The notes below the pieces were generated by a model. It was not told the DNA's origin, did not search any database, and was given only the letters and a program-made list of their open reading frames with translations. Below are positions 3,568 to 36,589 of a DNA stretch of 64,000 nt, piece after piece; the stretch's first letter is position 1; each line of letters begins with the position of its first letter. A program made the translations under genes and the position numbers. Origin of the DNA: Dehalococcoidia bacterium (GTDB taxonomy: Bacteria; Chloroflexota; Dehalococcoidia; UBA6926); NCBI GenBank assembly GCA_963666115.2, contig CAXXET010000008.1, positions 32,001-96,000 of the forward strand, written 5' to 3'.

Positions 3568-3646
3568 CCTATAATCAACCATGCTTGGCACCTCGTTTGA
3601 GAACCTCATCACCCCTGATGAAGCGGCCTCAAAGGCAGCAACATAG
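3568..3646 (+). repeat. Copy 1 of a promoter/leader segment (CCTATAATCAACCATGC + PDEAA-encoding stub)
   Basis: 17-bp exact match to 35298-35314; ATG 3581 reads MLGTSFENLITPDEAASKAAT*, versus MPNSQTEPPAPDEAAAEIAAN at 35311. Confidence 0.7.
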
Positions 3647-3655
3647 AAAAGCACC

Positions 3656-5389
3656 ATGAATCGTAGCGCAAAGGTCCTCGGCATATTCGGCATGATTGCG
3701 CTAGTGATCCTGGGCTTCGCACTGGCATTCAATCAATTTTCGCCTCGCCAAGAACCTGTAGTCGCGCCTTCTCCTACAATCACTGCAGAGCCTAAGGTTA
3801 CGCTGACTCCTACACCTGCCGCGACATCCCAAGTCCTTACATCGACTCCCGTGCCGGTTGTGACAACACCGCCCTTCACACCGTCCCCCGCACCGACTGC
3901 TACATCATCATTTGTCCTCACGGCAACACCTGCTCCAACTCCTTCGTCTGAACCAGAATTAGATTTGGTGGCAGCGCGAATTGCAGCGAGGAACTTGAAA
4001 GACCAAATGCAAGCTGTGTATTACATCTGCACGCAATCTTCCTGTGGCACGGCATCCTACGTGAAATTCGCAGAGCCTGGTGGTTCCGTCTCTTACTACA
4101 TCCTCACTGCTGCCCATATATTGTGTGACGACGATGGTGATGCCTGCTCGCATACCGCTGCGGTGCGGAGGGTCTCTATCGGCGAGCCGACCGGTTGGTA
4201 CGAGACACGAGTGGTTCATATCGACTGGGCTAAGGACGTGGCTTTGCTAAATCCCGTTACCGAATTGCGCCAAGTCTATGCTTCACATGGCGTCAGCCTA
4301 GAAAGAGAGTGGTTTGACACTGCTTTGCCGGTGGGAGAGCTCCCATCACGCGGAGCAAGCATGGTCGCCATCGCGTCAAATGGGCTGAAAATCGAAATGA
4401 CAAATGACAGGGAAAGCTATTCTGGCTCTTGTTCAAGACCGGACTACTGTGCACCAGTCTTGGGGCAGGCGTTGAATGGCACATCGGGTAGTCCCGTAAT
4501 TGACGCCCATGGCAGAGTCGTTGGCATTATCACCGGTGGGTGGGAGAGTGACCGTCAGCATATCGTTATTGCTACCGGAGATGGGATCTTGAGGGCTATA
4601 AGGGATGCTCCGACATCCACGACAACTACGCCGCCACCAACACTCTCGGTCCCATGGACACCAGCGCCCGTCCCCACAGCAACACCTATCCTAACGCCAA
4701 CATCTGATCCTGACTCGGACTCCATCATTCGTGAAACGACCTCAGTACCGTTGTTGTTGGGATACAAGATGCATGCTGTGTACCAGATTTGCACCCTGAA
4801 AGCTTGTGGCACAGCGTCCTACGTTAGATTCACAGAGCTTGACGGTTCCGTCTCTTACTTCATCCTCACCGCCGCTCATGTACTTTGCATCGATAATGGC
4901 ACTAGATGCTCACACAACGCTGGGGTGCGAAGGACGGTTGTAGGCGCGACCGGTTGGTATGAGACACAATTGCTTTATGTTGATTGGTCTAAAGATATTG
5001 CGTTGCTAAGTCCAGTCGACGAATTCACATTGCAGTACCGTTATGATTACAGCATAATCACATTCGAATACAAATGGTTTGACGCCGCTTTATCACTAGC
5101 ATTTCTTCCGCCACGTGGGGCGGCATTGACCGCTATCGCATCGAATGCGTTCACTATCGAAATGGTCAATAATAAGGCATCCTATTGGGGCTCTTGTTCA
5201 AGTCTGGACTATTGTGAGCCGGTATTGGGTGAGGCAGTAGATGGCATGGCAGGTAGCCCTGTGGTTGATAGATTTGGCAAAATCGTCGGTATCGTCACCA
5301 GAGGATGGAAGAGCGATCGTCAACATGTTGCGATTGTCACCGGCGACGGAATTTGGCGGGCTATAAGGGACTTTCAAGATAGCCAGTAA
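3656..5389 (+). CDS. Membrane-anchored/secreted protein with two trypsin-like serine protease domains and Pro/Thr linkers
   Basis: N-terminal TM; ILTAAH, D(V/I)ALL, G(TS/MA)GSPV each occur twice; lower GC than flanks. Confidence 0.8.
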   Translation: MNRSAKVLGIFGMIALVILGFALAFNQFSPRQEPVVAPSPTITAEPKVTLTPTPAATSQVLTSTPVPVVTTPPFTPSPAPTATSSFVLTATPAPTPSSEPELDLVAARIAARNLKDQMQAVYYICTQSSCGTASYVKFAEPGGSVSYYILTAAHILCDDDGDACSHTAAVRRVSIGEPTGWYETRVVHIDWAKDVALLNPVTELRQVYASHGVSLEREWFDTALPVGELPSRGASMVAIASNGLKIEMTNDRESYSGSCSRPDYCAPVLGQALNGTSGSPVIDAHGRVVGIITGGWESDRQHIVIATGDGILRAIRDAPTSTTTTPPPTLSVPWTPAPVPTATPILTPTSDPDSDSIIRETTSVPLLLGYKMHAVYQICTLKACGTASYVRFTELDGSVSYFILTAAHVLCIDNGTRCSHNAGVRRTVVGATGWYETQLLYVDWSKDIALLSPVDEFTLQYRYDYSIITFEYKWFDAALSLAFLPPRGAALTAIASNAFTIEMVNNKASYWGSCSSLDYCEPVLGEAVDGMAGSPVVDRFGKIVGIVTRGWKSDRQHVAIVTGDGIWRAIRDFQDSQ

Positions 5390-5400
5390 GGCACCCTCAA

Positions 5401-5553
5401 TTACATCATGCGGACGTAGTCGGGACCCATGCCGGGCGGAGGGCCCAGTTCCGTAATGGGTGGATGCTCATCTGCGAGTCCATCTTTGGCTGCGATGATG
5501 ATGAGCGGGGATTTCGGTGGGGTTCGATGGAATTGGCCTGCGCCTCTTGACAT
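5401..5553 (-). CDS. Putative 50-aa ORF ending PPGMGPDYVRMM
   Basis: Manual translation (below ORF-track size); tail resembles end of ORF 6102-6665. Confidence 0.3.
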   Translation of the reverse strand: MSRGAGQFHRTPPKSPLIIIAAKDGLADEHPPITELGPPPGMGPDYVRMM

Positions 5554-5622
5554 CCGTTGCTCATGTCCCTATAAGAGAGGGCTATAGAAATTCCCCGTCT
5601 TAGGAAAGGAGGAGCAGACACT

Positions 5623-5814
5623 ATGTCTCAAGCAGACCACCTCCAAGAGCATATGGAGAGTGTACGAGAGGCACTACTCGGGCTAAGGATAGCAATCACC
5701 GACCTAAAAACTCGGCGTTTAAATGGGAGCGATGAGTCATCGCTTGACCGCTTCCTAAATGACGCGCTCAAGGTCTTAGGCAAGGCCATTGACAAAGAGG
5801 GCAACTGGAGATGA
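5623..5814 (+). CDS. Small helical hypothetical protein
   Basis: Strong RBS AAAGGAGGAG; 63 aa. Confidence 0.6.
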   Translation: MSQADHLQEHMESVREALLGLRIAITDLKTRRLNGSDESSLDRFLNDALKVLGKAIDKEGNWR

Positions 5815-5876
5815 GAGGCGGTGTGTAGGAACGTGTTATGCCCCGCCCCTTTGAGCTTCGATAGTATGGTTGCTCC

Positions 5877-5908
5877 TCCCCCGCTCAGGGTGAGCGGGGG
5901 ACTTCTTT
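5877..5908 (+). terminator. Hairpin, probable intrinsic terminator
   Basis: TCCCCCGCTCA-GGG-TGAGCGGGGGA then CTTCTTT, between convergent ORFs. Confidence 0.6.
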
Positions 5909-5916
5909 GAGTGGCG

Positions 5917-6105
5917 TTAAGTCAAGCGGCGCTTACGTCGTCCAGTAGCCGCTGCCCCGCAGCTGCCGCACGCCCGCAATAGTGAGCACGATGGGCAGAA
6001 GCGTATCAACGACCGCCCAGATGCCCCAGGCGCTGTGCCAGACCGGAACCTTATTCGCGAAGCGGCCACAATCCCATTACAGCCAGTAGGACATCCTCGA
6101 CTCAC
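5917..6105 (-). CDS. Small Cys-rich, possible Zn-ribbon protein
   Basis: CPTGC, CPSC, CGSC; start overlaps stop of the upstream ORF. Confidence 0.35.
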   Translation of the reverse strand: MSRGCPTGCNGIVAASRIRFRSGTAPGASGRSLIRFCPSCSLLRACGSCGAAATGRRKRRLT

Positions 6106-6665
6106 ATCATGCGGGCGTCGTCGGGATCCATGCCGGGCGGCTCTTCCATCAGGACTGCTACATGTCCTGCAAACTCAAATGGAATGAACCGATGACTACG
6201 AATACCAGCAGACTCCTTCCTGAGCAATTTCTCGCAAGTCGTGCAGAATCTAGTCGATGAATCGCCATGAGTCTTAATCGGGTCACCCATAGACTTTGGA
6301 ACCAGTGGGCGGACATGGTTAATCTGCGTCAGTGTATTCTTGCAGATGGCCTTGGCAGGCACATCCGGGGGCCGTAGGAGATCATGCTTGCGTATAACGT
6401 GAACTCTTGCTTTATGCCCAGCTTTGTTCGTTACCAGAAACAGGTCGCGCCAACTATCTGTCCGGTTGGATACAACCAGCTTAGTGCGGCTGCCCCTTTG
6501 ATCCGAGATCAAATCCCCCAAGCAATGATCACAGACCATACGCTCGTGCATGTTCGCGGGAAATCCCGCACCGCACCGTAAGCACACCTTGAGAAGAGGG
6601 TACACCACTCTACCTCGTTTTCTCCCTAAGACTCTTAGCTCCGCAACGTTGCATGTCTTCATCAA
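6102..6665 (-). CDS. Hypothetical protein with CxxC motifs
   Basis: CLRC, CDHC, CTTC; low GC. Confidence 0.5.
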   Translation of the reverse strand: MMKTCNVAELRVLGRKRGRVVYPLLKVCLRCGAGFPANMHERMVCDHCLGDLISDQRGSRTKLVVSNRTDSWRDLFLVTNKAGHKARVHVIRKHDLLRPPDVPAKAICKNTLTQINHVRPLVPKSMGDPIKTHGDSSTRFCTTCEKLLRKESAGIRSHRFIPFEFAGHVAVLMEEPPGMDPDDARMM

Positions 6666-6740
6666 GGATAGGAGAACAAGGGTGCGTGGTCAAGCTTCAC
6701 ACATCGTTACGTGCGTTTGTGGGCATCTCCTGCGAAACTA

Positions 6741-6793
6741 GGAGTCGCTTTGACTGGTCATTCCGTTAGCCGTATCATTGGCTAAGTGACTCC
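6741..6793 (+). promoter_or_regulatory. Sigma70-like promoter with palindromic operators for the TA operon
   Basis: TTGACT(6750-55)-17 bp-TATCAT(6773-78); TGAC-TG-GTCA and TTAGCC-N8-GGCTAA inverted repeats. Confidence 0.65.
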
Positions 6794-6808
6794 AGAGAGG
6801 GCATACAC

Positions 6809-7054
6809 ATGGTTACCGTCAACGTCCACGAGGCCAAAACCAACCTGTCTCGCCTGCTTGCTCAGGTGGAGGCGGGCGAAGAGGTAGTCATCGCCCGCAA
6901 CGGCACGCCGGTGGCGCGGCTGGAGCGGGTCAAGCCGCGCGTGAAGCGGCAACCGGGCCGTTGGAAGGGCAAGATAAGTATCGACGACAGTTTCTTTGAT
7001 CCGCTTCCGGACGAGGAGCTGGCGCGCTGGGAAGGCAGGGAAATCCCTGATTGA
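6809..7054 (+). CDS. Phd/YefM family antitoxin
   Basis: VNVHEAKTNLSRLL...GEEVVIARNGTPVARL. Confidence 0.92.
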   Translation: MVTVNVHEAKTNLSRLLAQVEAGEEVVIARNGTPVARLERVKPRVKRQPGRWKGKISIDDSFFDPLPDEELARWEGREIPD

Positions 7055-7440
7055 GACTACTACTCGACACTCACGCCCTGATCTGGTGGCTCGTCGACAA
7101 TAGCCGTCGATTGCCAGAAGCTGTCCGTATCGCCCTCGAGGACGAAACAAACGAAATCCTCGTCAGCGCGATAACGGCATTTGAGATAACGACTAAGTAC
7201 AGGCTGGGAAGATTGGATGCGGTGACTGACTTCGTCGATGATGTCGGAGGGGCTGTCGCTGCCGAAGGATTTGATGAGCTTCCGGTTTCCCTGGCAGATG
7301 CCGCCCGTGCAGGCGCGCTGCCCGGACCAAATCAGGACCCGTTTGACAGGATGCTCATGGCGCAGGCCCTCAACCGCGACCTCACGCTCGTCTCAAACGA
7401 GATTCTCTTCGATCAATACGGCGTCCGCCGCCTCTGGTGA
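7051..7440 (+). CDS. vapC: VapC (PIN-domain) toxin
   Basis: LLLDTHALIW, SAITAFEI, DPFDRMLMAQA; 4-bp overlap with antitoxin. Confidence 0.92.
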   Translation: MRLLLDTHALIWWLVDNSRRLPEAVRIALEDETNEILVSAITAFEITTKYRLGRLDAVTDFVDDVGGAVAAEGFDELPVSLADAARAGALPGPNQDPFDRMLMAQALNRDLTLVSNEILFDQYGVRRLW

Positions 7441-7473
7441 AGTATCGCGTCGGTCAAGCGTGCCGTGCCGCCG

Positions 7474-7917
7474 TTACGTCATCCAGTAGTTGCTCCGCAT
7501 CTGCCGCACGCCCGCTATGCCGAGCGTGATGGGCAGGAGCGTATCGACGACGGCCCAGATGACCCAGGCGCTGTGGTTGCCGTCAAGAGAGTCGCTGCCA
7601 TGCGCGAGCAGGCTGAACCAGTTGTGCAGGAACAGGATCGTGACGGCGACGATCCCGTAGAACGTCCCGTTGACGGCAATGTACCGTGAGGAATCACTGT
7701 TGCCCATGGCGCGCTGCCGCCTCTCCTCCTGCTTGTCCGCAAAGCTCACTGCCAGGCCGATGACCAGCGCAATGAGCATGAGGACGTCCAGCACGTACCA
7801 GACGGCCTGGACGTCAAACGTGTCGTTCGCGACGAAGAATGAATTGATGATGAAATACACAACGACGGCGAGGCTCACCGCAATCAGGTAGATGCCTCCG
7901 ATTTGCTTCACGCCCAT
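7474..7917 (-). CDS. Four-TM hypothetical membrane protein
   Basis: RBS AGGAGG; four hydrophobic segments. Confidence 0.7.
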   Translation of the reverse strand: MGVKQIGGIYLIAVSLAVVVYFIINSFFVANDTFDVQAVWYVLDVLMLIALVIGLAVSFADKQEERRQRAMGNSDSSRYIAVNGTFYGIVAVTILFLHNWFSLLAHGSDSLDGNHSAWVIWAVVDTLLPITLGIAGVRQMRSNYWMT

Positions 7918-7966
7918 GACAACCTCCTGTCACCGGTTTCCGTCCCCGTATCGGCCCCCAGGCCGG

Positions 7967-8479
7967 CTAGCGCGCCGCCTCCTGATCGCTTCCGTGCAGG
8001 TTTACCGAGACCCAGCCGCTCGCCGTTGCTCGACCGGACGCATACGGCCGTCCGTCGCTCACCCTTGTTAGCTCCGAGGCGGGGAACGGAGCGTCCAGCC
8101 GCTCAAGCCCCGCAACCGTCAGGAGGTTGACGCTGGGCCGGCCGATAGCGCCGTGCCCGCTGCCGTAGAGGGTGCTTGCGGCGGGCTGGCGCTGCTGTAT
8201 CTCTTCGTACACCCGATCCCTCTGCTCGTCCGGCATGGACATTGGGTCCGCCCACGCCACGATCTGGCCGGTGTATGCGACGGTGTCCTGCCGCTCGGTC
8301 GTCGATACGTACAGCCGCATCGGATTCTGCGATGTCGGCGGCGATTGGCTGAGCGCGAGGATACGAGTGGACGAGTACGGCTGTAGATAGTGCGCTTCGC
8401 CCGGATGATTCTGCTGAGCCTCGATGATTTCGTCGAGGACGCTCTGAAATATGCCGACAATGAAAAGTGCCTCAGTCAC
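7967..8479 (-). CDS. Hypothetical soluble protein
   Basis: GTG 8479 after GGAGG; no family recognised with confidence. Confidence 0.65.
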   Translation of the reverse strand: MTEALFIVGIFQSVLDEIIEAQQNHPGEAHYLQPYSSTRILALSQSPPTSQNPMRLYVSTTERQDTVAYTGQIVAWADPMSMPDEQRDRVYEEIQQRQPAASTLYGSGHGAIGRPSVNLLTVAGLERLDAPFPASELTRVSDGRPYASGRATASGWVSVNLHGSDQEAAR

Positions 8480-8572
8480 TGGCGAACCTCCTAGTCCTCT
8501 GCCCAACCCCCAAATGATAATGCAGATACCCTGGCATCCGCGACAGTTATCCCGCCCCAGGCCAAACTGAGA

Positions 8573-9634: not shown

Positions 9635-9752
9635 CCACCCCTCCCCGCATGCCACGCGCCCACACATCACGCCGCCTCAAACCGCCCCAGCCGCCTGTAC
9701 ACTATGAGTATGGCATGACACTCCTTCAGATGAAGCGCAAGGAGGGGAACAC

Positions 9753-10019
9753 ATGAAACAACTCACCGTTAGAGGATTCGACGACGAACTAAGCGAGTGC
9801 ATCCGCCGAGAAGCCGAGCAGGAGGGAATCTCCCTCAGCAAGGCAGCCCTGCGGTTGCTGCGCCGCGGAGCGGGCCTGCCTCAGCCTACTGTCAAGCCAC
9901 CAGAAATCGGGCGTTCTCTGGATCGATTTGCGGGGGTATGGACGAAGGAGGAGGCCGAAGAGTTCGACCGAATCATCAAGGAGAGCTTTGAGGGCATCGA
10001 TGACGAGGATTGGCAGTGA
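9753..10019 (+). CDS. Antitoxin with ribbon-helix-helix-like N-terminus (copy A)
   Basis: MKQLTVRGFDDEL...GISLSKAALRLL; acidic tail; overlaps vapC start. Confidence 0.8.
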   Translation: MKQLTVRGFDDELSECIRREAEQEGISLSKAALRLLRRGAGLPQPTVKPPEIGRSLDRFAGVWTKEEAEEFDRIIKESFEGIDDEDWQ

Positions 10020-10414
10020 ATGCCCTCCTTGATACGAACGCATACTCAGCGTTCTTCGCGAACAATCCCCAGGTATTGATGCTGATACGGGGTGCAGACC
10101 ATGTCTACATTTCAGCCATTGTTCTTGGTGAGCTGTTGCAGGGTTTCCTAGGCGGGTCACGTTTCGAGCAGAATAACCGGCTCCTGCAGGAGTTCCTCAT
10201 GGACTCAAGAGTGTCGGTCCTGAATGTGACCGCGACGACCGCTGGTTACTACGCTGAAATACGTCAATCTCTCCGCGCCAAGGGCCGCCCCATCCCGACG
10301 AACGATATATGGATTGCCGCCCACGCCATGGAAACCGGCGCGGAACTGATCTCAGCAGACCGCCACTTTGAAGAGGTGGACGGCCTGGCATGGGCGAGGG
10401 TGGGGGCAACGTAG
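10016..10414 (+). CDS. vapC: VapC (PIN-domain) toxin
   Basis: LLDTNAYS, IVLGEL, IPTNDIWIAAHA, SADRHF. Confidence 0.92.
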   Translation: MNALLDTNAYSAFFANNPQVLMLIRGADHVYISAIVLGELLQGFLGGSRFEQNNRLLQEFLMDSRVSVLNVTATTAGYYAEIRQSLRAKGRPIPTNDIWIAAHAMETGAELISADRHFEEVDGLAWARVGAT

Positions 10415-10569
10415 GCGCTTGTGAGCACCCTACTCCCAACCGCCCACGCCGCTAAGAGTATGGAGCGGGAGGGGGTGCAGGGCGGCACAGACGTCACCTT
10501 GACGCTCAAACACGCCACACTGACAATGACTGGCACGACACTCCGGCGCGTGTGGCGCGAGGGGGGCAG

Positions 10570-10899
10570 ATGAAGCAACTGACAGTTAGAGGATTCGACG
10601 ACGAACTGAGCGAACACATCCGCCGGGAGGCTGAGCAGGAGGGCATCTCCCTCAGCAAGGTAGCCCTGAGGCTGCTGCGGCGCGGAGCGGGGCTGCCGTC
10701 GCCAAAGGCACGGAAGGACGAAGCGGGGTTGCGGTTTGACGAGAACTCCGGCCCCTCCGGCGTCGATCCTGGCACGCTACGCAGGCTCGCAAGACTTCCT
10801 GTAGAACAACGCGAGGTGGTTCTGTCGGGCGCATCCGTTCTCGTAGATGCCGAAGAAACTGAGGCATGGGACTCAACCCTGAACGACGGGCTGGACTAG
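10570..10899 (+). CDS. Antitoxin copy B: same N-terminus as copy A, unrelated C-terminus
   Basis: First ~43 aa nearly identical to 9753 ORF; lies upstream of the MazF-like gene. Confidence 0.75.
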   Translation: MKQLTVRGFDDELSEHIRREAEQEGISLSKVALRLLRRGAGLPSPKARKDEAGLRFDENSGPSGVDPGTLRRLARLPVEQREVVLSGASVLVDAEETEAWDSTLNDGLD

Positions 10900-10913
10900 G
10901 GACGGGCCGCGCT

Positions 10914-11273
10914 TTGACTACTAATGCCCCAACACGTGGCGAGGTCTGGCTGGTACGGATGCCCCAGGCCGTAGGGGTTGAATTGCAGCGAGATCGCCCC
11001 GCAGTCGTCATTAGTTCCAGTACATTTGATGAGCAGGATGTCCGTATTGTCGTGCCGCTTTCGAGTTGGCGAGACGGGTTCGCTGGAAGACTCAACAAAG
11101 TTCCGATTCAACCCGATGAGCAGAATGGTCTGAATGCAGTTTCGGCGGCCGATTTCCTACAAGTTCGCAGCATTTCTACCCAGCGGTTCCTAAGGCGCAT
11201 AGGCGAACTAGATGCCACCTTGGTCGAAGAAATCGTCGCCGGTGTGGCCGTCGCCATCGAGTACCAGCCTTAG
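10914..11273 (+). CDS. mazF: PemK/MazF family toxin
   Basis: RGEVWLV...GVELQRDRPAVVIS...VVPLS...NGL...QVRSIS.QR. Confidence 0.88.
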   Translation: MTTNAPTRGEVWLVRMPQAVGVELQRDRPAVVISSSTFDEQDVRIVVPLSSWRDGFAGRLNKVPIQPDEQNGLNAVSAADFLQVRSISTQRFLRRIGELDATLVEEIVAGVAVAIEYQP

Positions 11274-11288
11274 GACGCTCGACTATTT

Positions 11289-11363
11289 GTTGATCTCATC
11301 TCACCAGACAGCCATCTCGAGCGGGTGGGTGGCTCCGCGTGGGCGAAGGTGGGGCTAGGATAG
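11289..11363 (+). pseudogene. 3' remnant of a second vapC
   Basis: VDLISPDSHLERVGGSAWAKVGLG* aligns ungapped to AELISADRHFEEVDGLAWARVGAT* of the 10016 VapC. Confidence 0.75.
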
Positions 11364-11381
11364 CCAATCGGGTCACCGACC

Positions 11382-12371: not shown

Positions 12372-12429
12372 TTCTGCCCTCTTTCGTACTGTCTCGTCTT
12401 CTGTGCTTCTCGTCTCGCCGCTCCTCTAC

Positions 12430-16203: not shown

Positions 16204-16205
16204 CC

Positions 16206-17210
16206 GTGTCCCAGCCCGACAACATCAACTCCCGGCCCGGCGCGCTCCGCCGCCGCATCCTCCATCCGGCCACGCTCATCTCATTCGCCGTCGCCATCCT
16301 CCTGCTGGTTGCGCTGGCGCGAGGCGTGGACGTCAGTTTCGCGGACATGGCGCGAGCGATTGCCGATGCCAACCCGCTCCTGATCGCCGCCGCCCTTGTC
16401 ACGTACTATGTCAACTTCCCACTGCGCGGAATCCGGTGGCGGCTGATGGCGCTCAACGCGCAGGACGAGCCGAGGCCGCTGCCGTCCGCCGCCGCATTCA
16501 GCGAGACCGTCTTTCTTGGGTGGTTCGTCAACGCCATCTCCTGGTTCCGCATGGGCGACCCGTACCGCGCCTACGTGATCTCCCGCCAGCCGGACGGCGA
16601 GTCCTACCCGCGACTGCTCGGCACGGTCCTGGCCGAGCGGGTGGTGGACGCCGTAACCTTCGCCGGCATCCTGCTGCCCGTCGGCGCCCTCATCTGGGCG
16701 GACGCGGGCGGCGCGACGACGGCCGTCATCGGCCTCGCGGTCGCTCTTGGAGGAGGCGGCATCTTCCTGGTGACCTGGATGGCGCTCTTCGGAGACCGCC
16801 TCACAGGGAGGCTGCCCATCGCAATCCGCGAGTGGGTAGAGCGTCTGCGAATAGGCGCGCTCCTCAGCCTCAACGGCAGGCGATGGCGCATTTCCCTGCT
16901 AAGCATCGGGGCGTGGGCGGCAGAGGTCGGACGGCTATTGCTGGTCAGCTGGGCGCTCGGATTCGATATCCCGTTCCCGGTGATCGCCTTCGTCGCCCTC
17001 GCCCACAACCTGATCACCGCAATCCCCGCCACCCCAGGCGGCCTCGGCATCGCCGAAGCAGGCATGATAGGCCTCCTCCTCCCCTGGATGCCGCCGGAGG
17101 AGGCCGCCATCCTAACAGCCCTGGACCGAGCAATCTCCTGGCTAAGCGTAATCGCCCTAGGCGCCCTGCTAATAGCCTGGCGTGAAGGAGTCCGCCGGGG
17201 AAAGTACTAA
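16206..17210 (+). CDS. Lysylphosphatidylglycerol synthase TM/flippase-like (UPF0104) protein
   Basis: RGIRWRL, RMGDPYR, ERVVD, TPGGLGIAE. Confidence 0.85.
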   Translation: MSQPDNINSRPGALRRRILHPATLISFAVAILLLVALARGVDVSFADMARAIADANPLLIAAALVTYYVNFPLRGIRWRLMALNAQDEPRPLPSAAAFSETVFLGWFVNAISWFRMGDPYRAYVISRQPDGESYPRLLGTVLAERVVDAVTFAGILLPVGALIWADAGGATTAVIGLAVALGGGGIFLVTWMALFGDRLTGRLPIAIREWVERLRIGALLSLNGRRWRISLLSIGAWAAEVGRLLLVSWALGFDIPFPVIAFVALAHNLITAIPATPGGLGIAEAGMIGLLLPWMPPEEAAILTALDRAISWLSVIALGALLIAWREGVRRGKY

Positions 17211-17226
17211 AATGACCAGACCCATC

Positions 17227-17252
17227 CGTCATTCCCGCGAACGCGGGAATCT
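17227..17252. repeat. REP-like palindrome
   Basis: CGTCATTCCCGCGAACGCGGGAATCT; related copy at 35243. Confidence 0.7.
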
Positions 17253-17439
17253 AACCGCTGAGCCGCAGGACGGCGAACGTGATTGAGGACGCTATCACAG
17301 CCGACGCCAAGGCTGCGCTGAGCGTGACGCCTATCATCCACCCGATGAGGCGTGTTTCTATCCGGGCAAGGTCTTCCCTAGTCGGAAAGTGTTGGAACTC
17401 ACGACGCAGATCCTGCATCGTTATCGACTGATCTGCCAT
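17251..17439 (-). CDS. Small protein with coiled segment and C-terminal TM anchor
   Basis: PTREDLARIETRLIGWMIG followed by a hydrophobic helix; RBS GAGGA. Confidence 0.6.
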   Translation of the reverse strand: MADQSITMQDLRREFQHFPTREDLARIETRLIGWMIGVTLSAALASAVIASSITFAVLRLSG

Positions 17440-17559
17440 CAATCTTCCTCGTGAACTCCTTGCCACCCTCATTCTGCCATAGAGGCACCTCGCGGAACTC
17501 TTCGCCGTCGCCCGCCCGTACCCGCTGGTCGCGCCGGTCACGGCAAGCGGCCCCACTCA

Positions 17560-19389
17560 TCAGTGATCAGCACCTACTTCACGCAAGAGGTCTTCCGGAT
17601 TCCAAATCAGGCCCGCCAATTGCTGGTACAACTTGCCCCGTTCCTCCATGTCCATTCGCTTGAACTCGCGGTGCGCCCGGAATGGCATATGATTCCGCTC
17701 AACGAAGTCGAGAAAGCCTGGATTGTTGGTGTACGCCAACTCGTGAAGCGAGCGAGCAAGCAAGTTCTGGGAGTTGTAGTGTGGCAGTTTCTCTTCGTAG
17801 GGCAGATCGCCGTAGCTCGCGTTGAACTGCTTCGGCAGGAGCAGGAGTCCACCCACCCGGTTTCGATACTCAGAGAAGTCTGCGGCGTGAGTGAACTCAT
17901 CTGCGTGGTATTCATGGCGATTAGCCCAGATATGCTCCACTTCATAGCGTGTCCTTCCCGTTGCGACATACTCGTGGTATCGCGAAGGCTGACCCGACTG
18001 TGTCTCAACGAAATCGGTCATGCGAGCCAAGAGGCGATGCAGGGCATAGCGGTTTTGCTGGTGAACCGTTAGCCGATCGTTGGAGACAAACGTTTCCTCC
18101 TCCCGGCCCAGACGTTCATACAAGTACTTGGCCAACTCTCTGGGCTCCAGCCCGCGTATGTCACGCATAACCAGAAACATGGCGTACTGCATGGTCGAAT
18201 AGGCGATCGATCTGAAGTTCCATATGCGCCACGCAATCAGGATATCGACGAAACGGGCAACCAGCCGCAGCTTGGTGCCGACTGTCTCCTCGTTGTCTCC
18301 GGTGCGCAGCGGGGCCAAGAGGAGCATGTCCTGCAAGGTGAACCCTTGTGCAGCGTTGTAATAGACGTGCTCCAGGCCGGAAACTAGTTTTTCCTGTGCC
18401 GCGCGGATCCGCAGGTATTGCTCGCTATAGAAAGCGAAATCGCGGCGGACAAAGTCGAAGAATCCGTCCTGTTGGCCCAGTCCGAGTCGTTCCTTCGTAT
18501 CATCCACCCACCGATGAAATTCAGTGCCGATTCGTTCAAAGTCTTGGGCGGAGGCGCCCTTTCGCCGCTCACGGATCGAGTTCGCAAACTGGCTCCGCAG
18601 CCACGCCTTGAAGAAGTCTGAGCCATGTTCGTCACCTTGCTCGCTCAGCACTTGGACGCGTCGCCGCCACAGTTCGTTCGCCTCCATACGTCGGCCTTGC
18701 TCCATGTTGGCAAGCAGGTAACCCTTCAGCATCTCCGTGGGGTTCAGCGAGAGTCCGCGATCATTCATTGTCTCGAAGATTGTGTACGCCTCTGCGTCGT
18801 CGTTCGCAGTGATCTCGACAAGGTCGACGTTATCGATCAACCAATCGATGAAGAAGGGTAGCGCTTCCTCCCGTAGCTCGTCGGGGAAATGCGATTCAAT
18901 ATCCTGATAGCGGTCATACAGGTTCGTAACCGATTCGTCTTGGTCGCTGGCATCGTAGCTTTCGCCGTCAAACAGCGCCCGCATGCAAGCTTCTCTCTCG
19001 GGAACATCCAAGAAGAAACTCTTTTTACCGAATTGCTCGGAGAAAATCAGGTGGTCGATGGAAACAGCATTATCTCGACCCTTCTGGAGCTTACGCAAGG
19101 CAATGAGAAGCAGTGTCAGAGTCGTTAGCCGCTGTTGCCCATCAACAATGAAGCTGTCGGTTCCTCGCTGGCTGATGATGACGGAACCAAGGAAGTAGCG
19201 GGGGAACTCCTTGACAGTTGTCCGAGGGATGCCGCTCTCATACTCCTCAAGGAACTTTTCGGTCAGATCGTTCAGTAACTCGCGGACCTGCTTCGCTTCC
19301 CAACGGTACTCGCGCTGGTAGTAGTCGATGGCGTATTTCACGCCCAGCAACTCTCGTACGCTCTTCCCTACTGCGCCAATCGGCCTCAT
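17560..19389 (-). CDS. GmrSD-type (DUF262 + DUF1524) modification-dependent restriction endonuclease
   Basis: YQREYRW, VDGQQRLTT, FETMNDRG; C-terminal EHIWA...GLLLLP..FNASYG. Confidence 0.88.
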   Translation of the reverse strand: MRPIGAVGKSVRELLGVKYAIDYYQREYRWEAKQVRELLNDLTEKFLEEYESGIPRTTVKEFPRYFLGSVIISQRGTDSFIVDGQQRLTTLTLLLIALRKLQKGRDNAVSIDHLIFSEQFGKKSFFLDVPEREACMRALFDGESYDASDQDESVTNLYDRYQDIESHFPDELREEALPFFIDWLIDNVDLVEITANDDAEAYTIFETMNDRGLSLNPTEMLKGYLLANMEQGRRMEANELWRRRVQVLSEQGDEHGSDFFKAWLRSQFANSIRERRKGASAQDFERIGTEFHRWVDDTKERLGLGQQDGFFDFVRRDFAFYSEQYLRIRAAQEKLVSGLEHVYYNAAQGFTLQDMLLLAPLRTGDNEETVGTKLRLVARFVDILIAWRIWNFRSIAYSTMQYAMFLVMRDIRGLEPRELAKYLYERLGREEETFVSNDRLTVHQQNRYALHRLLARMTDFVETQSGQPSRYHEYVATGRTRYEVEHIWANRHEYHADEFTHAADFSEYRNRVGGLLLLPKQFNASYGDLPYEEKLPHYNSQNLLARSLHELAYTNNPGFLDFVERNHMPFRAHREFKRMDMEERGKLYQQLAGLIWNPEDLLREVGADH

Positions 19390-19452
19390 CGTGACTCCCT
19401 AAAGTCGTGTCAGCAATCTCTCATCGTCCGCCTAGCATACACGCAGCCGCCC

Positions 19453-25224: not shown

Positions 25225-25233
25225 GCAGCGGCC

Positions 25234-26148: not shown

Positions 26149-26974
26149 CGAGGGACGCTCCGGCTTGCTGGGACTCCGGTCATCGGAGGAGGCGCGTGTC
26201 CGCCTGCGCGTCCGGCAGGAGGGCGATGAGGACGAGTACGCATCCTTCGCATCCCTCTCCGCGGATGCGGAGACCGCGCAGGAGGTTCTCGCCGAAATGC
26301 TCCGGCACATGGACGTTGACGCCGACATTTCCGTCTACGTTCCCGGCAGCGACCCCACCCGCCCCTTTGAACCCGGAGACCCCATCGTCCTCGACGTTGA
26401 GAGAGAGGACGCCGGCCTGCTGATCGGAAGGCGCGGCCAGACCCTCCGCCACGTGCAGATGCTCCTCAACACCATCGTCTCCCGGTCCGTCGGGCATTAC
26501 GTCCCTCTGCGCATTGACGTGGAGGGCTACCAGCAGCGCCACATCTACCGCCTCCAGCAGATCGCCCTCCGCGCCGCGGACCACGTGAACCGGCGAAGGC
26601 GTCCCATCACCCTCGACCCCATGTCGCCCGCCGACCGCCGCATCATCCACATGACACTCGCAAACAACCCGTCTGTCGTCACGGGCAGCACGGGCCACGG
26701 CGAGAACCGGCGCGTCACCATCCAGCAGGCCCCGCGCGGCGGCGGCGACCAACAAGCCGGCCGTCCAGCCGCCCAGGCGCCCCCACCGCCCGCGCCCCTG
26801 GCGGACGAGGATGACTACGAGGACGACGACTACATCGACGACGATGAAGATTATGACGATGAGTATGACGACGAAGACTACGACGATGATGATGAAGAGT
26901 ACGAGGATGACGAGGACTATGACGATGAGTACGACGACGAGGAGCAGGACGAGGACCCTCCCCCGCCGCGCTGA
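26042..26974 (+). CDS. jag: Jag/EloR/KhpB RNA-binding protein with acidic tail
   Basis: GRTVEEAI (Jag_N), LIGRRGQTL (KH), RRIIHMTL (R3H). Confidence 0.92.
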   Translation: MSQSLEWTGRTVEEAIREGLDELGLEREDVDVDVLSEGRSGLLGLRSSEEARVRLRVRQEGDEDEYASFASLSADAETAQEVLAEMLRHMDVDADISVYVPGSDPTRPFEPGDPIVLDVEREDAGLLIGRRGQTLRHVQMLLNTIVSRSVGHYVPLRIDVEGYQQRHIYRLQQIALRAADHVNRRRRPITLDPMSPADRRIIHMTLANNPSVVTGSTGHGENRRVTIQQAPRGGGDQQAGRPAAQAPPPPAPLADEDDYEDDDYIDDDEDYDDEYDDEDYDDDDEEYEDDEDYDDEYDDEEQDEDPPPPR

Positions 26975-26991
26975 GCTCGCCCGCCATCCCC

Positions 26992-27693: not shown

Positions 27694-27695
27694 AC

Positions 27696-27917: not shown

Positions 27918-28149
27918 GACCATCTTCTGGCTGACCGCCATCCTGGCCTACGTGGCCGTGCAGATTGCCGTTCAGATTGCGGCAGCGCGCGACCTCGGCA
28001 AGCGCAAGCGCGTCCGCGGCGGCAACCGCTGGCTCTGGGTCGTCGTCATCCTGCTCCTCCTCCCCGGCGCGCTCGCCTACTTCGCCTTTGGCCGCCTCCC
28101 GGATGATGACCCTGCCGCCATGCCGCCGCAAAGCCCCGCAACGTGGTAG
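27910..28149 (+). CDS. PLDc_N-like small membrane protein
   Basis: DL.KR..VRGGNRWLWVVVILL..PGALAYFAFGR. Confidence 0.75.
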   Translation: MVETIFWLTAILAYVAVQIAVQIAAARDLGKRKRVRGGNRWLWVVVILLLLPGALAYFAFGRLPDDDPAAMPPQSPATW

Positions 28150-28210
28150 CGTAGTCAGACAATCACTGACACACGCATAGCCCAGACATCCACAGGTAGG
28201 TAGACCGCAC

Positions 28211-31420: not shown

Positions 31421-31441
31421 TCAGAGCGCTTTGCCCGTCGC

Positions 31442-32089: not shown

Positions 32090-32507
32090 GCCGTGACCCT
32101 CCTGCGTCCGCGCTTCGCTCACAAAGACATGGACAAACGCATTATATTCTCTCGCAGCCCGCCTGAGCAGGCCGGACGACCCCTCGAATGAAAGGGGGGC
32201 GCTTAGATCCCTTCTCCGGCTGAGCAGATCTGTAATCTGCGAATCATCCGCGTACACAACACCGTTCATCGCATCCAGGATGAGCTTGGGGATATTGTCG
32301 ATGTCTATAGGCAGCTGCCCCCGGCAGAACCGGCCCGCGAAAGTACGTGATCGCGGCAATCACGTCTCCTTCGAACGGCAGGCCATCATCCCATCGGCGG
32401 CGCGCCTCGTCTCTGACCGTCTCCGTCCATTGCCTCTTTCGAGTGGCAGAGGATGATTGCTGTGATACCGGAACGCCCTGGACGACGAACTCGAAGGGTA
32501 GTGCCAG
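32080..32507 (-). pseudogene. RusA-like endonuclease with apparent frameshifts
   Basis: LPFEFVVQGVPVSQQ in one frame, DIDNIPKLILDAM.GVVYADDSQI in another; frames join by removing one base from C5 at 32318-22. Confidence 0.7.
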
Positions 32508-32571
32508 AACTACCTCCTTTGCCCCAAGTGTACCCAATCGGCGGCAGCGCTTGGCCGCGTGACGATGGCTC

Positions 32572-33543
32572 CTAGCCCCCCAGCGTCTCCCCCACGAACT
32601 CCGGCCGCCCCCGCACGAACTCCCGCGCCGGCATCGCCCTCCGCCCCTCCGCCTGCACCTCAAGCAGCTCCAGCAGCCCCTCCCCCGTGCCGACGGCGAC
32701 GCCCGCCCCGCCTCCGTCCTCTGACCGCCTCAGCCGCACGACGCGCCCCGCTGGCGTGCCTCGCGCATCGTACTCCTCCGGCAGCGCAATCGCGCGGCGG
32801 ATAGCCAGGCGCTTGCCCGCCAGCATCGTGTACGCCCCCGGTTGGGGCGTCATCGCCAACACGCGCCGCTCCAGTTCCTGCGCGGGGCTGTCCCAATTCA
32901 GCAAGCCGTCACCCTTCTCCAGCATCCGCGATTGCGTGGCCAGGCCATGATCCTGGGCCTCGGGCGTTATCGATCCGCCGAGCCAGTTGCCCAGGGTTTC
33001 CACCAGCAGCGCCGCGCCCATCTGCGAGAGTCGTTCCGTCAATTCCCCCGCCGTCTCGCCGGACCGAATCGGCGCCGCGCGCCGGCTCAGCAGCGGCCCT
33101 GAATCAACACCCTCTTCCAGCAGGAAGATGCTCACGCCGGCGTTCTCGTCGCCCTCCAGCAGCGTCCACACCACCGGCGCAGGCCCCCGGTGACGAGGCA
33201 GCAGCGACGGATGAACGTTCAGCGCGCCGCGCGGCGGGATGTCCAACACGCTGCGCGGGAAGATGAGGCCGTAGGCCGCCGTTACGATAACCGTCGGTTC
33301 CAGCGTCCGTATCCGTTCAGCTTCCTCCTCCGAGCGAAGCGTCGCCGGCTCGAGCACGTCGAGCCCGTACTGCACGGCGCGTTCCTTGACGGGCGACCGG
33401 CGCGGCCGCCGCCCGCGCCCCGCCGGCTGGTCCGGGCGCGTCAGCACGGCGACGGGCCGGTTCTCCGACCTCATCAGCGCATCGAGCGTCGGCACGGCGA
33501 ATTCGGCGGTGCCGCAAAAGATGATCCGGGAATTTTGCTCCAT
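32572..33543 (-). CDS. fmt: Methionyl-tRNA formyltransferase
   Basis: FCGTAEFA, TRPDQPAGRG, NVHPSLLPRHRG. Confidence 0.95.
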   Translation of the reverse strand: MEQNSRIIFCGTAEFAVPTLDALMRSENRPVAVLTRPDQPAGRGRRPRRSPVKERAVQYGLDVLEPATLRSEEEAERIRTLEPTVIVTAAYGLIFPRSVLDIPPRGALNVHPSLLPRHRGPAPVVWTLLEGDENAGVSIFLLEEGVDSGPLLSRRAAPIRSGETAGELTERLSQMGAALLVETLGNWLGGSITPEAQDHGLATQSRMLEKGDGLLNWDSPAQELERRVLAMTPQPGAYTMLAGKRLAIRRAIALPEEYDARGTPAGRVVRLRRSEDGGGAGVAVGTGEGLLELLEVQAEGRRAMPAREFVRGRPEFVGETLGG

Positions 33544-33832
33544 TTTTCTCCGCCGAAACGCAGGCTCTCAGTACGGGCTACCCTCGAATTATTGAGGTAT
33601 TGAGAGCTTGTGGCAATGGCGCGGACACCCGCCACATTGCCTCAATCGTGGGCACCATGACGGTTTGCGTCTCTACGGTATCGACGCCCCTCACTTACCG
33701 GGTGTTAACGTAGATTCTTGTGACCCGACAGCGCCGGTGACTCTACCCGTCGACGGCGTGCCCTCCACGCTCAGGGAGGGTTGTCTTCCGGACAGTCGCG
33801 GTCGCTGCTTGCTGGAGGAGGACAGCGTTTCA

Positions 33833-35216
33833 ATGCCGGATGAACTTGTGCGCAAAACGTGGGAGGAGGCTCTTGGCCGCCTTCGCACGCAGATGAGCGC
33901 CGCCGCGTTCAACACGTGGCTGGCGGACACGTCCGGCGCTGCCCTCACCCGCGATGAGCTCACGGTGACCGTCCCAAGCGAGTACGCCCAGCATTGGATC
34001 CAGGGCTCCCTGCTCCCCATCATGGAGCGCATCGTCTCCGATGTCCTCAAAACGCCCCGTCGGCGTCGTCCTGCAGGTGGCGTCCGATGGCCCGCAGGCC
34101 CAGCCCGTTGCCGCAGCCGCGCGTGTCGTTGCCGAAGAACCGGCGCCCGCAAAACCCGCCCGTGGCGGTTCCCCCTTCATCATCGGCGCGCGACCGGACC
34201 CGCAGTTCACCTTCGACCGTTTCGTCGTCGGTGACAACACCAAGCTCGCCTACGCTGCCGCGACGAAGGTCGCCAGCGATCACGGCGGCGACTATAACCC
34301 GCTCGTCCTGTACGGCCCGCCCGGCCTCGGCAAGACGCACCTGCTTCACGCGATCGCCAACGAGGCGCAGGGGCAGGGGCGCACCACGCTCCTGGCCACG
34401 TCCGAGCAGTTCGTCCACGATTACGTCACCTCCGTCCAGAAGAAGACCACGGCAGGCTTCCGGGAGCGGTACCGTTCCCCGGACATCCTCGTCATCGACG
34501 ACGTGCAGTTCATCTGCGGCAAGGTCAAGAGCGAAGAGGCCCTGCTGCACACCTGCGGGGCGCTGCTGCGGGCAGGCCAGCAGATCGTCGTCTCCGCGGA
34601 CAGGGCGCCTGACGCATTGCAGTTCAGGAGCCCGCGCCTTGCCGCCCGCCTCCGCGCCGGCCTGCCCGTCGACGTGAAGCCGCCAAACAGGCGCACGCGC
34701 CTCAACATCCTGGCCTTCAAAGCGGCGCGCTACGACCTCGAAACACCGGACGATGTCCTCTCCTACCTTGCCGCCCGCCAGTTCTCCAGCATCAACCAGT
34801 TGGAGGGAGAACTCACCCGCGTCATCGCCCACGCCTCCCTGCTGGACCAGGCGCTCACGCTCGACCTCGCCCGCCAGGCCCTCTCCACCGCATCGACAAA
34901 CGCTGACCCCGTCCCCCTGACAATCGACGCCATCATTCGCACCACAGCCGCGTTCCGCCAGGTGACGCCCGCGGACATCACAGGCCGCAGCCGCGCCCGC
35001 CCCGCAGCCGAAACGCGCCATCTCGCAGTCTTCCTCGCCAGCCGCCACACCGATCACTCGCTCGCCTACATCGGCAAGTCATTTGGCAACCGCGACCACA
35101 CCACCGTCATGCACAGCATTCGCCGCATGGAGCGCGCCCTGGCCACAGACGCCAAGCTCCGCGCCGACGCCGAAGCAATCATCCAACTAGCCTCCTCCAC
35201 CTTCCCCCCCCACTAG
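33833..35216 (+). CDS. dnaA: Replication initiator DnaA, split by a one-base frameshift
   Basis: Domain I (AFNTWL) from 33833; FTFDRFVVG, GPPGLGKTHLL, DDVQF, RDHTTVMH in next frame; joined by removing one A from AAAA 34049-52. Confidence 0.9.
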
Positions 35217-35242
35217 CCCCCCCCCGCCATTCCGCACCCCTC

Positions 35243-35269
35243 CGTCATTCCGGCGTAGGCCGGAATCCA
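35243..35269. repeat. REP-like palindrome
   Basis: CGTCATTCCGGCGTAGGCCGGAATCCA, same family as 17227. Confidence 0.7.
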
Positions 35270-35297
35270 CCCCGTGGCCCGATAGGGCCACAACCCC

Positions 35298-35435
35298 CCT
35301 ATAATCAACCATGCCCAACTCACAAACAGAACCCCCCGCCCCCGACGAAGCCGCCGCAGAAATCGCCGCCAACGAACTCCTCCGCCGCCACGAGCGGGAT
35401 GAGCCCGAAGCCAACATCGCTGCAGCCCTCACATC
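35298..35435 (+). pseudogene. Copy 2 of promoter/leader plus 5' gene stub, possibly of a type IIG R-M gene
   Basis: TATAAT just before ATG 35311; ELLRRHERDEPEANIAAA, then composition shifts; family assignment from recall only. Confidence 0.45.
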
Positions 35436-35531
35436 CACGTGCATCACAATCAGCACGCCTGGTGCGAACACGCCCGCCATCATCACTTTCAGTGTCTCCC
35501 ATCCTGAATGCAGGTACACAGGGTGGAGGAT

Positions 35532-36161
35532 ATGATGGAGGATGTGCAATGGTATTCGTACTTTGAGTACGTTGCTTTTTTCTATCCGATTGGAATCCCT
35601 CTTCATGGCCTTCTTTGGTTGCCTGCTTGCACCGATCATCGCACTCTTATGCTTCGTACTGGCGGTCCCGGTTGCGCCTGGATGCCGGTTCCTATGCCGG
35701 AGCCGGAGCCCTTCACTCCGCTCTCTTGGTTCTGCCGGCAGCGTATCTTATCTTGCGGTTATCAATAGGAGACTCGCGATTCCTTCGCTTGGTAGCATTC
35801 GCTGGATTCGTATTCATTTACCTCGTCTGGGTCTTTTCTCCTGGGTATCAATGTATCTCAAGCACTCCTCTCGCTTCTGGAAATCAGTGTTTTCGACCAA
35901 TACCCTCTGATTATTATGGGCCCGGCCTTTGTGTGGTTCCTGGGCATGCTACTCCTCAATGTCTTCACGCTGCGCCTAACGATAAGGAACCTTCTCGCCG
36001 CGCGTGCAGCGCCGCCGCCGCCCGACAGTGAGCCTCCGTTTGATCGGCGCGCGGGCGAATACTGGCCTTACCTCATGCCCTGGGCAGCAGTGATCGTCTG
36101 GTCTTTCATCACGCTGGCAGGCACGATTGCCGTCGGCATGGCGGCGCTAGGGACCCAATGA
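35532..36161 (+). pseudogene. Low-GC membrane protein gene split across frames
   Basis: GGAGG RBS + ATG 35532; hydrophobic segments continue through ORFs 35508/35542/35615/35916. Confidence 0.55.
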
Positions 36162-36250
36162 TCCGCCCCCGCCGGAGACATAGCGTTGTCTGAGACGCGC
36201 CTCATCCACGTTGACGTTCAACCGGCGCCCTAATCACCCTGCTGTTCTAA

Positions 36251-36336
36251 TGTCATTCTGAGCGCAGCGAAGAATCCAAAGCCTCAATTGTGCGGGCGGA
36301 CACGTCCTTAGATTCTTCGGGGCTGCGCCCCCCAGA
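36251..36336. repeat. REP-like imperfect inverted-repeat element
   Basis: TGTCATTCTGAGCGCAGCGAAGAATC ... GATTCTTCGGGGCTGCGCCCCCCAGA. Confidence 0.65.
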
Positions 36337-36589
36337 GCACCTGTGGAAGCTGCCGATACCGGCGTATAACGAGCGAGAGGCCCTGCATCGTGAGTTGGCA
36401 AAGGCAGGCAAAGCGGCAGCCGAGCGTGTGGCGGACATCCTGCCGGAACTCCGCGCGAGAGAAGAGGCCGAGGGCAGGCCCCTAACAGTAACAAAAGCCC
36501 GCAAAGAAATCCGCAACTGGCTCCGCGCATCCAACGAAGGCAAGCACGTCGAGCGCCTGGTAGCCACCCTCCTAAAAGGCGGAACGTAG
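36337..36589 (+). pseudogene. 3' gene remnant, possibly C-terminus of a type IIG R-M/N6-methylase
   Basis: HLWKLPIPAY...LHRELA.AG...TVTKARKEIRNWL begins abruptly after the repeat, without start or RBS. Confidence 0.5.

Follow-up and report, generated by a model that had tools for sequence, protein, structure and literature searches.

The replication-origin neighbourhood of a sponge-associated Dehalococcoidia bacterium raises the question of how the ends of a gene can stay in place around a body of unrelated DNA, with no recombinase encoded nearby. The window, that is, the whole stretch of 64,000 nucleotides analysed here (positions 32001-96000 of contig C8, CAXXET010000008.1), is part of a metagenome-assembled genome of 2.07 Mb with ~63.5% GC, which is referred to as G000 and its nine contigs by numbers such as C7 or C8. 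An earlier note on this DNA had described recurring 'gene shells' of this kind and had proposed that short conserved gene ends act as homology anchors for serial cassette swapping. Two kinds of selfish defence modules would have been overwritten here, a mobile type IIG restriction-modification (RM) gene and a FitA-VapC toxin-antitoxin (TA) pair. We consider the shells to be probable scars of events in which gene bodies were replaced, in small slots of variable content that lie between conserved housekeeping genes. This reading is built on homologies, junctions, intact and empty states of the same sites in relatives and a series of homologues, all of which were observed directly, and the pattern fits homologous recombination in the conserved flanks together with illegitimate joins, not a dedicated integron-like platform.

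Pfam assignments place dnaA (33608-35216), rnpA, yidC, jag, rsmG, ileS, fmt, obg, era and selA in the window and thereby identify the origin neighbourhood; metagenomes from sponge and marine sources carry the window sequence at low share. The genus set comprised 22 genomes, and collinearity was compared between G000 and four relatives (G013, G003, G007 and G008), which are collinear with the window at 72-88% identity. Collinearity is broken at ~12 slots (near 3551, 7930, 9650, 14700, 17200, 21282, 31414, 35220, 43153, 50536, 54371 and 60460), whose contents vary among the five genomes and which sit in very short spacers between core genes, e.g. 21 bp between era and selA in relatives; the empty sites of other genomes measure 7-48 bp. 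G000 fills 11 of the ~12 slots, more than each of the four relatives. Alignment of the orthologous loci, as suggested in the earlier note, revealed an intact RM gene in slot A (3551-7465) of G007 and in slot B (35220-40185) of G013 and empty sites in other genomes. Since relatives hold an intact RM gene at both sites, the stubs found there in the window are leftovers of resident copies. As had been claimed, no integrase or transposase was present among the 136 window open reading frames (ORFs; 78 + 58) scanned with Pfam. Genome-wide, G000 encodes two tyrosine recombinases (C4 and C6) and three DDE_Tnp_1 (IS4-type) transposases, all outside the window; a search of G000 for RAYT (Y1 transposase), rve and Ku gave no matches.

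The stubs at 35311, 36337 and 3568 were assigned by blast and promoter alignments to one RM gene family of ~1050 aa. An intact paralogue is located elsewhere in G000 (C7:442-3609, a 1056-aa ORF); it matches REase_MTase_IIG of PADLOC (E 6.4e-62) as well as N6_Mtase (E 1.2e-10) and Eco57I (E 4e-10) of Pfam and, as a single chain with an N6-adenine methyltransferase core of the Eco57I type, belongs to type IIG. Residues 1-260 were covered by no family in the Pfam and PADLOC searches. Eleven full-length copies, one of them with a TAG, were found in 10 of the 22 genus genomes, and comparison of their flanks showed that they occupy at least 8 non-orthologous loci. The gene is mobile, and no recombinase is linked to it. 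An upstream element, CC(C/G)CCTATAAT(C)CAACCATG, is common to all copies, and its -10 box (TATAAT) lies 5-6 nt ahead of the ATG; because of this short distance the RM mRNA may be leaderless. The exact promoter motif occurs 10 times in 6 of the 22 genomes (a reversed control motif: 0) and heads genes of this family (family 1) six times, once with a stop, and other bodies four times. Remnants of the family are also found elsewhere in the genus: a 3' stub at one orthologous locus common to G002 and G003 stands behind unrelated genes with a different promoter, G009 has a 5' stub with stops and G004 has fragments, and G005 is likewise among the genomes whose copies are fragmented or carry stops. 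A putative 3' stub in G001 (C70) was dropped, since the contig merely ends there.

In slot A, the shell (3565..3647, + strand) consists of the RM-family promoter (CCTATAATCAACC) and a 21-codon stub ORF. The earlier note had recognised here the promoter and 5' stub of the 35311 locus ahead of a protease, and indeed 3565-3629 aligns with the RM promoter and ~17 codons; the alignment with five RM 5' regions includes the PDEAA motif, and the similarity is short (72 nt, 71%, E 0.001 against the whole genome). The cargo (3656..5389, +, ~53% GC) encodes a 577-aa secreted-type protein with two trypsin-like domains (Pfam Trypsin_2, E 5.6e-20), and the gene is duplicated internally (3914-4605 against 4670-5370, 67%). 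It is followed by a 187-aa ORF on the opposite strand (6102..6665, -), for which Pfam, NCBIfam and PADLOC gave no family match, and by a Phd/YefM antitoxin (6809-7054) and a PIN/VapC toxin (7051-7440) on the + strand, identified by Pfam and synteny. This Phd-VapC pair (6809..7440) is the right-hand resident of the slot and is also present in G003, G007 and G002; beyond it lies a core membrane-protein gene (7474..7917, -) found in all four relatives. In G007 the slot contains the intact RM gene and then the same Phd-VapC pair, in G003 15 bp and then the pair, and in G008 48 bp. G002 shares the cargo: its equivalent slot holds the protease (86% identical) and the 187-aa ORF (83%) without an RM stub, preceded by ~1 kb of different DNA and a 55-nt fragment of the core membrane-gene tail.

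The junctions, which were mapped within about 10 nt, are consistent with this. On the left, RM homology stops at ~3629 and homology to the protease locus of G002 begins at ~3641, 15 nt before the protease ATG; this start of the cassette, ~15 nt ahead of the ATG, is found in two contexts. The right-hand side is again homologous to G007, G003 and G002 from ~6742 onwards, just before the Phd promoter; this border is identical in G000, G003 and G007, the junction of the 187-aa ORF with Phd is common to G002, and no RM 3' stub is kept. We propose that a G007-like RM gene was replaced from about codon 18 to the right border of the slot by an incoming block of protease and 187-aa ORF as in G002, by way of homologous exchange in the common Phd-VapC/membrane-gene flank at the right end and an illegitimate join at the left. 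This would be the pattern of homology-facilitated illegitimate recombination: the right border is both the common slot border and the G002 junction and the left join lies within RM codon ~18, as read from the end states in these genomes.

Slot A contains further scars. A short-word self-comparison of the window yielded five direct repeat pairs, one of them inside der/engA, and one short reverse-strand match (59410-59518), and the repeats on which the earlier note had relied, here and at the TA locus described below, are real. The tail that it had seen to be common to the ORFs at 5401 and 6102 corresponds to a 60-nt direct repeat (R2, 85%), the left copy of which (5381..5439) comprises the 3' tail of the 187-aa ORF and the protease gene end, and the right copy of which (6081..6140) covers the stop of the 187-aa ORF. 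Both copies bracket a 640-bp insert (5440..6080) that is missing from G002, where the protease and the oppositely oriented 187-aa ORF meet at a single R2, an arrangement that corresponds to insertion with long target duplication. The insert contains a copy of the core membrane-gene tail (5926-6037), which matches its source at 7467-7575 with 82% over 112 nt; 5440-5925 gave no match in the genus. The repeats and tail copies of slot A are scars of the 'long target duplication' type from at least three events. When the outer borders of all inserts of at least 250 bp in the five genomes were searched for direct repeats, nothing but self-overlaps came up. As a separate observation, made by eye only, slot 5 of G013 (equivalent to window 17200-19444) contains a 305-bp insert that appears to be flanked by a direct repeat of ~47 nt (~77%) of the 3' tail of an ABC-2 permease gene, which would be another core-gene tail duplication.

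A different module was overwritten in the TA region (9658-11363). Unit 1 (9753..10414, +) consists of a FitA-like RHH antitoxin (9753-10019) and a PIN/VapC toxin (10010-10414), and whole homologues of this module are present in seven other genus genomes, besides a vapC 3' fragment in G011. Unit 2 shares the upstream region and 43 codons of unit 1, diverges thereafter and overlaps a MazF gene. The earlier note had seen in it an antitoxin half and a vapC tip around mazF, and this is borne out: 9658-9880 matches 10485-10697 at 77%, with a core of 139 nt at 86%, and 11291-11354 aligns with 10342-10405 without gaps (46/63 identical, score 29; shuffles 8.1 +/- 1.3, 0/5000 reaching 29), with stop codon and reading frame in register. 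The antitoxin of unit 2 is a hybrid of 109 aa (10570..10899, +), in which the FitA RHH N-terminus (to ~10697) is followed by a trimmed linker and a MazE-type C-terminal tail. Its gene overlaps that of a MazF/PemK toxin (10866..11273, +; Pfam PemK_toxin, E 2e-21), downstream of which the overwritten vapC has left its final ~24 codons with the stop (11291..11363, +). By Pfam, both antitoxins contain a FitA-like RHH, 10010-10414 contains PIN and 10866-11273 contains PemK/MazF, and a toxin of the PemK/MazF fold after an overlapping antitoxin gene is the arrangement of a MazEF pair.

In the same slot, G008 encodes a MazF of 66% aa identity after a 411-aa XRE-type protein, the last ~45 residues of which resemble the tail of the window hybrid. 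Therefore, 'antitoxin tail plus toxin' is the moving unit. A homologue search with the hybrid antitoxin gave 112 matches, eight of which are hybrids themselves (P0002-P0009, 61-82% identity); in seven of them the whole query is aligned, in P0009 74% of it, the C-terminus of P0009 being divergent. From the tail in the G008 protein and in 7/8 hybrid clusters (P0002-P0008), the toxin is predicted to be neutralised by the C-terminus of the hybrid. P0007 (134 aa) contains a complete FitA (70% identical to P0011 over 86 of 89 aa) and the MazE-type tail, the window hybrid (109 aa) corresponds to P0007 minus ~25 internal residues, and P0008 (95 aa) is shorter still. Since P0007 has a whole FitA plus the tail, vapC was replaced by a fusion at the very end of fitA and the VapC-binding segment was trimmed later. 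A MazE-tail+MazF cassette would thus have taken the place of vapC by in-frame fusion to the 3' end of fitA, and the part of FitA that binds VapC, now useless, would have been trimmed afterwards. Within the genus set the hybrid occurs in the window and in no other genome, and among species-representative genomes a search for close relatives returned only the FitA-VapC locus of G009. The TA shell is probably one old event passed down a lineage. Two side observations concern G008: its TA slot (C1, ~480000-483500) also holds a ThiF/E1-like gene of 457 aa accompanied by two small partner ORFs, and the 411-aa XRE-type protein, in the role of MazF antitoxin, has a peptidase-like region recognised by eye only.

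Slot B is 4965 bp long in G000, 3335 bp in G013, where it contains the intact RM gene, and 7-34 bp in G003, G007 and G008. The left part of the shell (35237..35445, +) comprises a repetitive extragenic palindromic (REP)-like element (35237-35280), the promoter (35297-35310) and the RM 5' stub from 35311 to ~35445; the right part (36337..36589, +) is the RM 3' stub. By tblastn, 35377-35445 matches RM residues 20-42 and 36335-36583 matches residues 973-1055 (72% identity, E 1.5e-28), and the 3' stub aligns with C7:439-692 of G000 at 66% over 254 nt (E 7e-28). The two stubs are thus the first ~45 and the last 83 codons of one RM gene. RM homology ends at ~35445 and restarts exactly at 36337, right after a palindromic repeat of 87 nt (36249..36336) that resembles REP elements or miniature inverted-repeat transposable elements (MITEs), lies exactly at the right junction and has a core with >100 genomic copies. 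The filler (35446..36248, +) is lower in GC, and three or four of its frames contain hydrophobic ORFs; the ~0.8 kb had no match in 41 genomes, and an 81-aa ORF in it matched only itself and two marginal sequences (E 4e-6 and 4e-5) among 1.84 billion representatives. Of the earlier claim that a 5' and a 3' stub flank an unrelated membrane gene, the stubs stand as the two ends of one gene and the 'membrane gene' does not, as there are hydrophobic ORFs in several frames and no clear homologues. To judge from its sequence, the filler looks like decayed or non-coding DNA and not like a working cassette. A G013-like RM gene would have lost residues ~46-972 and would have received ~0.8 kb of filler and the REP-like repeat instead.

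Such a locus could also have arisen by plain decay; dying genes would then have left the stubs as ordinary scars of deletion, and what lies between the stubs would not have come in as cargo. The filler without homologues and with a frameshifted look would agree with this, as would the RM copies of G009, G004 and G005 with stops or in fragments. Gene fragments are, moreover, common genome-wide: tblastn of 1552 ORFs of G000 gave 71 partial-match loci, ~18 of which are terminal fragments at >=60% identity by our own reading of the list (8 N-terminal and 10 C-terminal), which makes remnants a general trait of the G000 genome. We nevertheless regard decay as an improbable explanation of the shells as a whole, since the foreign genes within shell A and the TA unit are intact and have homologues elsewhere (the protease in G002, MazF and tail in G008) and since the hybrid antitoxin keeps its frame and is conserved in 8 further protein clusters. 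Chimeric assembly of co-existing strains is another explanation for the junctions: the metagenome-assembled genome is in 9 contigs, public contigs over 33800-41000 are short with none spanning a shell B junction by at least 31 letters, and those of 4 runs give no cover on 35487-35968. Contigs of one run (X5) match 36308-36646 and 36107-36257 without differences. With the hybrid antitoxin in 8 independent metagenomic clusters, one 3'-stub junction common to the G002 and G003 assemblies and similar promoter-stub junctions in the single-contig genomes G007 and G018, we hold an artefact to be very improbable indeed.

The REP-like element and the repeat of slot B belong to palindromic REP/MITE-like families (cores GTCATTCCGGCGTAGGCCGGAATCC, GTCATTCTGAGCGCAGCGAAGAATC and CACCCTGAGCCTGTCGAAGGG) with >100 copies each in G000, and every genome of the genus contains them. 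The window contains three high-copy sites (17225-17253, 35237-35280 and 36249-36336). With three sites against ~12 slots, REP elements as general slot borders were ruled out, and REP plus promoter as a generic dispersed module of G000 was ruled out as well, there being one occurrence in the genome.

Whether the kept gene ends serve as anchors can be judged from the copies of the proposed anchor in the 22 genus genomes. When these were counted, the promoter was found to precede four non-family bodies in three genomes, namely the protease and the ORFan filler of G000 and, in both G007 and G018, a gene of a second methyltransferase family. The second family (~1040 aa; G007:C1:666001-677000 and G018:C1:1311001-1322000) is 26-34% identical to the RM family in the methylase core; the G007 copy has no Pfam match and the G018 gene is split into ORFs of 694 and 281 aa. 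In G018 a 9-codon stub precedes the second-family gene, which has its own ATG, and in G007 the fusion lies within ~4 codons. The junction codon differs in each RM remnant (stubs of ~3, 9, 18 and 45 codons). Over the 11 full-length RM copies, mean pairwise identity is 0.56-0.68 in the first and last parts and 0.70-0.80 in the methylase core, which rules out conserved ends with a variable middle. The anchor idea therefore holds insofar as gene ends are kept round replaced middles and the promoter is reused; it does not hold insofar as the RM ends are not extra conserved and the junctions vary. A dedicated integron-like platform is not supported: the junctions are not fixed, G002 has the protease without an RM stub and the stubs are remnants of resident genes.

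A sharpened form of the anchor idea would look for the homology arms outside the gene, in a 'socket' of REP and compact promoter upstream and a REP cluster downstream that is reused by RecA-type recombination alone. The best case is an orthologous locus of G005 and G007, at which a family-1 RM gene in G005 and a second-family gene in G007 stand between flanks of 84-91% identity that extend for kilobases: homology covers REP and promoter as far as the ATG, is gone across two unrelated ORFs of ~3.1 kb and is back at the stop codon and the downstream REP, i.e. a start-to-stop swap. The three sockets of G007 share a near-identical upstream module of ~70 nt in front of ORFs that are 65% identical or unrelated, and the division of the exact motif between family-1 genes and other bodies, the equal 5' border of the protease cassette in two contexts and the nested scars of slot A point the same way. 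Weighed against this are the scarcity of sockets (10 motif copies per 22 genomes), the small number of REP sites for the slots of the window, the missing upstream REP at the C7 copy of G000 and at shell A, the G002 protease and the TA shell, neither of which has a socket (the latter also has no REP), and the G002/G003 remnant, which is a 3' stub alone with unrelated genes and another promoter ahead. Neither are the RM gene ends specially conserved and, since the stub lengths differ, the joins were made inside the RM gene and not in arms. We therefore rate reusable arms as unlikely. Somewhat more doubtful still is the extended form, in which REP and promoter upstream and the REP cluster downstream would be a portable 'expression socket' where unrelated defence ORFs are exchanged start-to-stop by host recombination alone; equally doubtful is the corollary that this would go on at several loci, with the 5' stubs as imprecise captures of promoterless foreign genes and the whole as a homology-based functional analogue of an integron platform.

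Replacement of gene bodies within slots, the reading that we prefer, has its own difficulties. The species are about 15-20% apart in DNA, and core DNA of those compared differs by 13-28%, a distance at which recombination tracts are not visible, so that the proposed mechanism is read from end states. G000 encodes ComEC and DprA, but so do most control genomes, and the two genes are no mark of competence. For shell B, either two illegitimate joins or an event linked to a REP has to be assumed, a point that the model leaves unspecified, and the constant start of the protease cassette hints at a defined cassette end. Finally, four independent remnants (two in G000, one each in G007 and G018) keep the promoter and <=45 of 1050 codons, which is more orderly than random deletion; selection, which is assumed here, or a mechanistic bias is therefore needed. 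We think that the short 5' stubs are explained by selection for the newcomer's expression, along with the removal of a nuclease domain left on its own. The DNA would have entered by uptake, recombination would have proceeded as described for slot A, and the stubs would have persisted because their promoter drives the new cargo.

The slots of the window carry defence genes: GmrSD/HEC-06, HEC-08, a weak dGTPase-like match, an AHJR-like nuclease and a HEPN-type pair, as well as a C5 cytosine methylase with Vsr and a PD-Lambda-5_A-like protein, a type II methyltransferase and SoFic. The C5 methylase (Dcm-type), the PD-Lambda-5_A-like protein, a 319-aa ORF and Vsr form the neighbour cassette in slot B (36733..40200, +). 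Apart from these genes, the C-terminal part of a Jag/KhpB-like gene contains a D/E/Y-rich acidic tandem repeat with periods of 9-18 nt (26804-26956), and a core ORF of 1113 aa without a Pfam family (47195-50536), kept in all four relatives, adjoins a CbbQ/NirQ-type AAA ATPase.

In sum, legible scars reveal the turnover of defence genes in a genome with almost no mobile-element genes. RM genes would move between slots, be gutted and leave promoters that drive newcomers; a TA pair changes its toxin and keeps the repressor domain, and the antitoxin series of 134, 109 and 95 aa is a natural record of two-module antitoxin evolution. The socket, if true, would be a recombinase-free route of cassette exchange to be sought in other streamlined symbionts. 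Minimal mobile elements, a known counterpart of the slots, often hold RM genes, and those of Neisseria were reportedly described by Saunders and Snyder in 2002 and by Snyder and colleagues in 2007. As defined in the excerpted part of PMC3082526, the term covers the ~12 slots of the five-genome comparison, with slot B as an example. In Neisseria, too, different whole-gene cassettes, often for defence, lie between the same two conserved genes with no recombinase, and their exchange is ascribed to homologous recombination in the flanks. Unlike there, species of an uncultured Dehalococcoidia genus are compared here, several slots keep partial resident genes and transformation may or may not be the route. 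The slots also resemble the hotspots without mobile elements that recombine at flanking core genes, as far as these are described in the excerpts of PMC5635113.

For RM genes, the excerpts of Furuta, Abe and Kobayashi 2010 (PMC2853133) describe allelic substitution and insertion with long target duplication. Both forms have a likeness here: the RM gene is found at many non-orthologous loci without a transposase and is substituted at the G005/G007 locus, and blocks are bordered by direct repeats of 60-110 nt from neighbour gene tails, of which a relative has one copy. Compared with the excerpted cases, the repeats here are diverged (82-85%) and interleaved, and none is clear at the outer borders of inserts of at least 250 bp. 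The anchor model of Kirchberger et al. 2017 (PMC5361080), in the part consulted, explains displacement of type VI secretion system effector-immunity genes and C-terminal 'orphans' of Rhs/CdiA by homology-facilitated illegitimate recombination. The shells share with the systems in that part a conserved upstream anchor, a displaced resident body, 3' remnants and nested scars. In those systems, by contrast, the long 5' region that stays constant belongs to a functional gene and arrays of orphans are built, whereas here the promoter and 3-45 codons of a dead gene are kept and there are no arrays.

Work by Makarova and colleagues from 2009 is said to be related to the two-module model of type II antitoxins. 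In that model (Smith and Magnuson 2004, as cited in the excerpted part of PMC3879964), the promoter and N-terminal DNA-binding domain form one module and the antitoxin C-terminus and toxin another, which is mobile as a unit. The same division is seen here, the partner of MazE-tail+MazF being an RHH domain in G000 and an XRE-type protein in G008. Beyond the model, the physical scars of the swap survive, i.e. the vapC tip and the trimming series from 134 through 109 to 95 aa; we know of no such report, no literature search having been aimed at one. Like integrons, the window has promoterless cargo behind a resident promoter, and the cargo differs between genomes. Unlike integrons, it has no IntI-type recombinase among its Pfam-scanned ORFs, no fixed junction sites and no cassette arrays; its junctions fall within coding sequence, and high-copy palindromic repeats occur at the three sites only. 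The shells are a well-preserved new example of known processes, with a modest likelihood that the RM 'socket' has more organisation than these. They match slots of the minimal-mobile-element kind, the substitution of RM alleles and the shuffling of antitoxin modules, and would also fit homology-facilitated illegitimate recombination.

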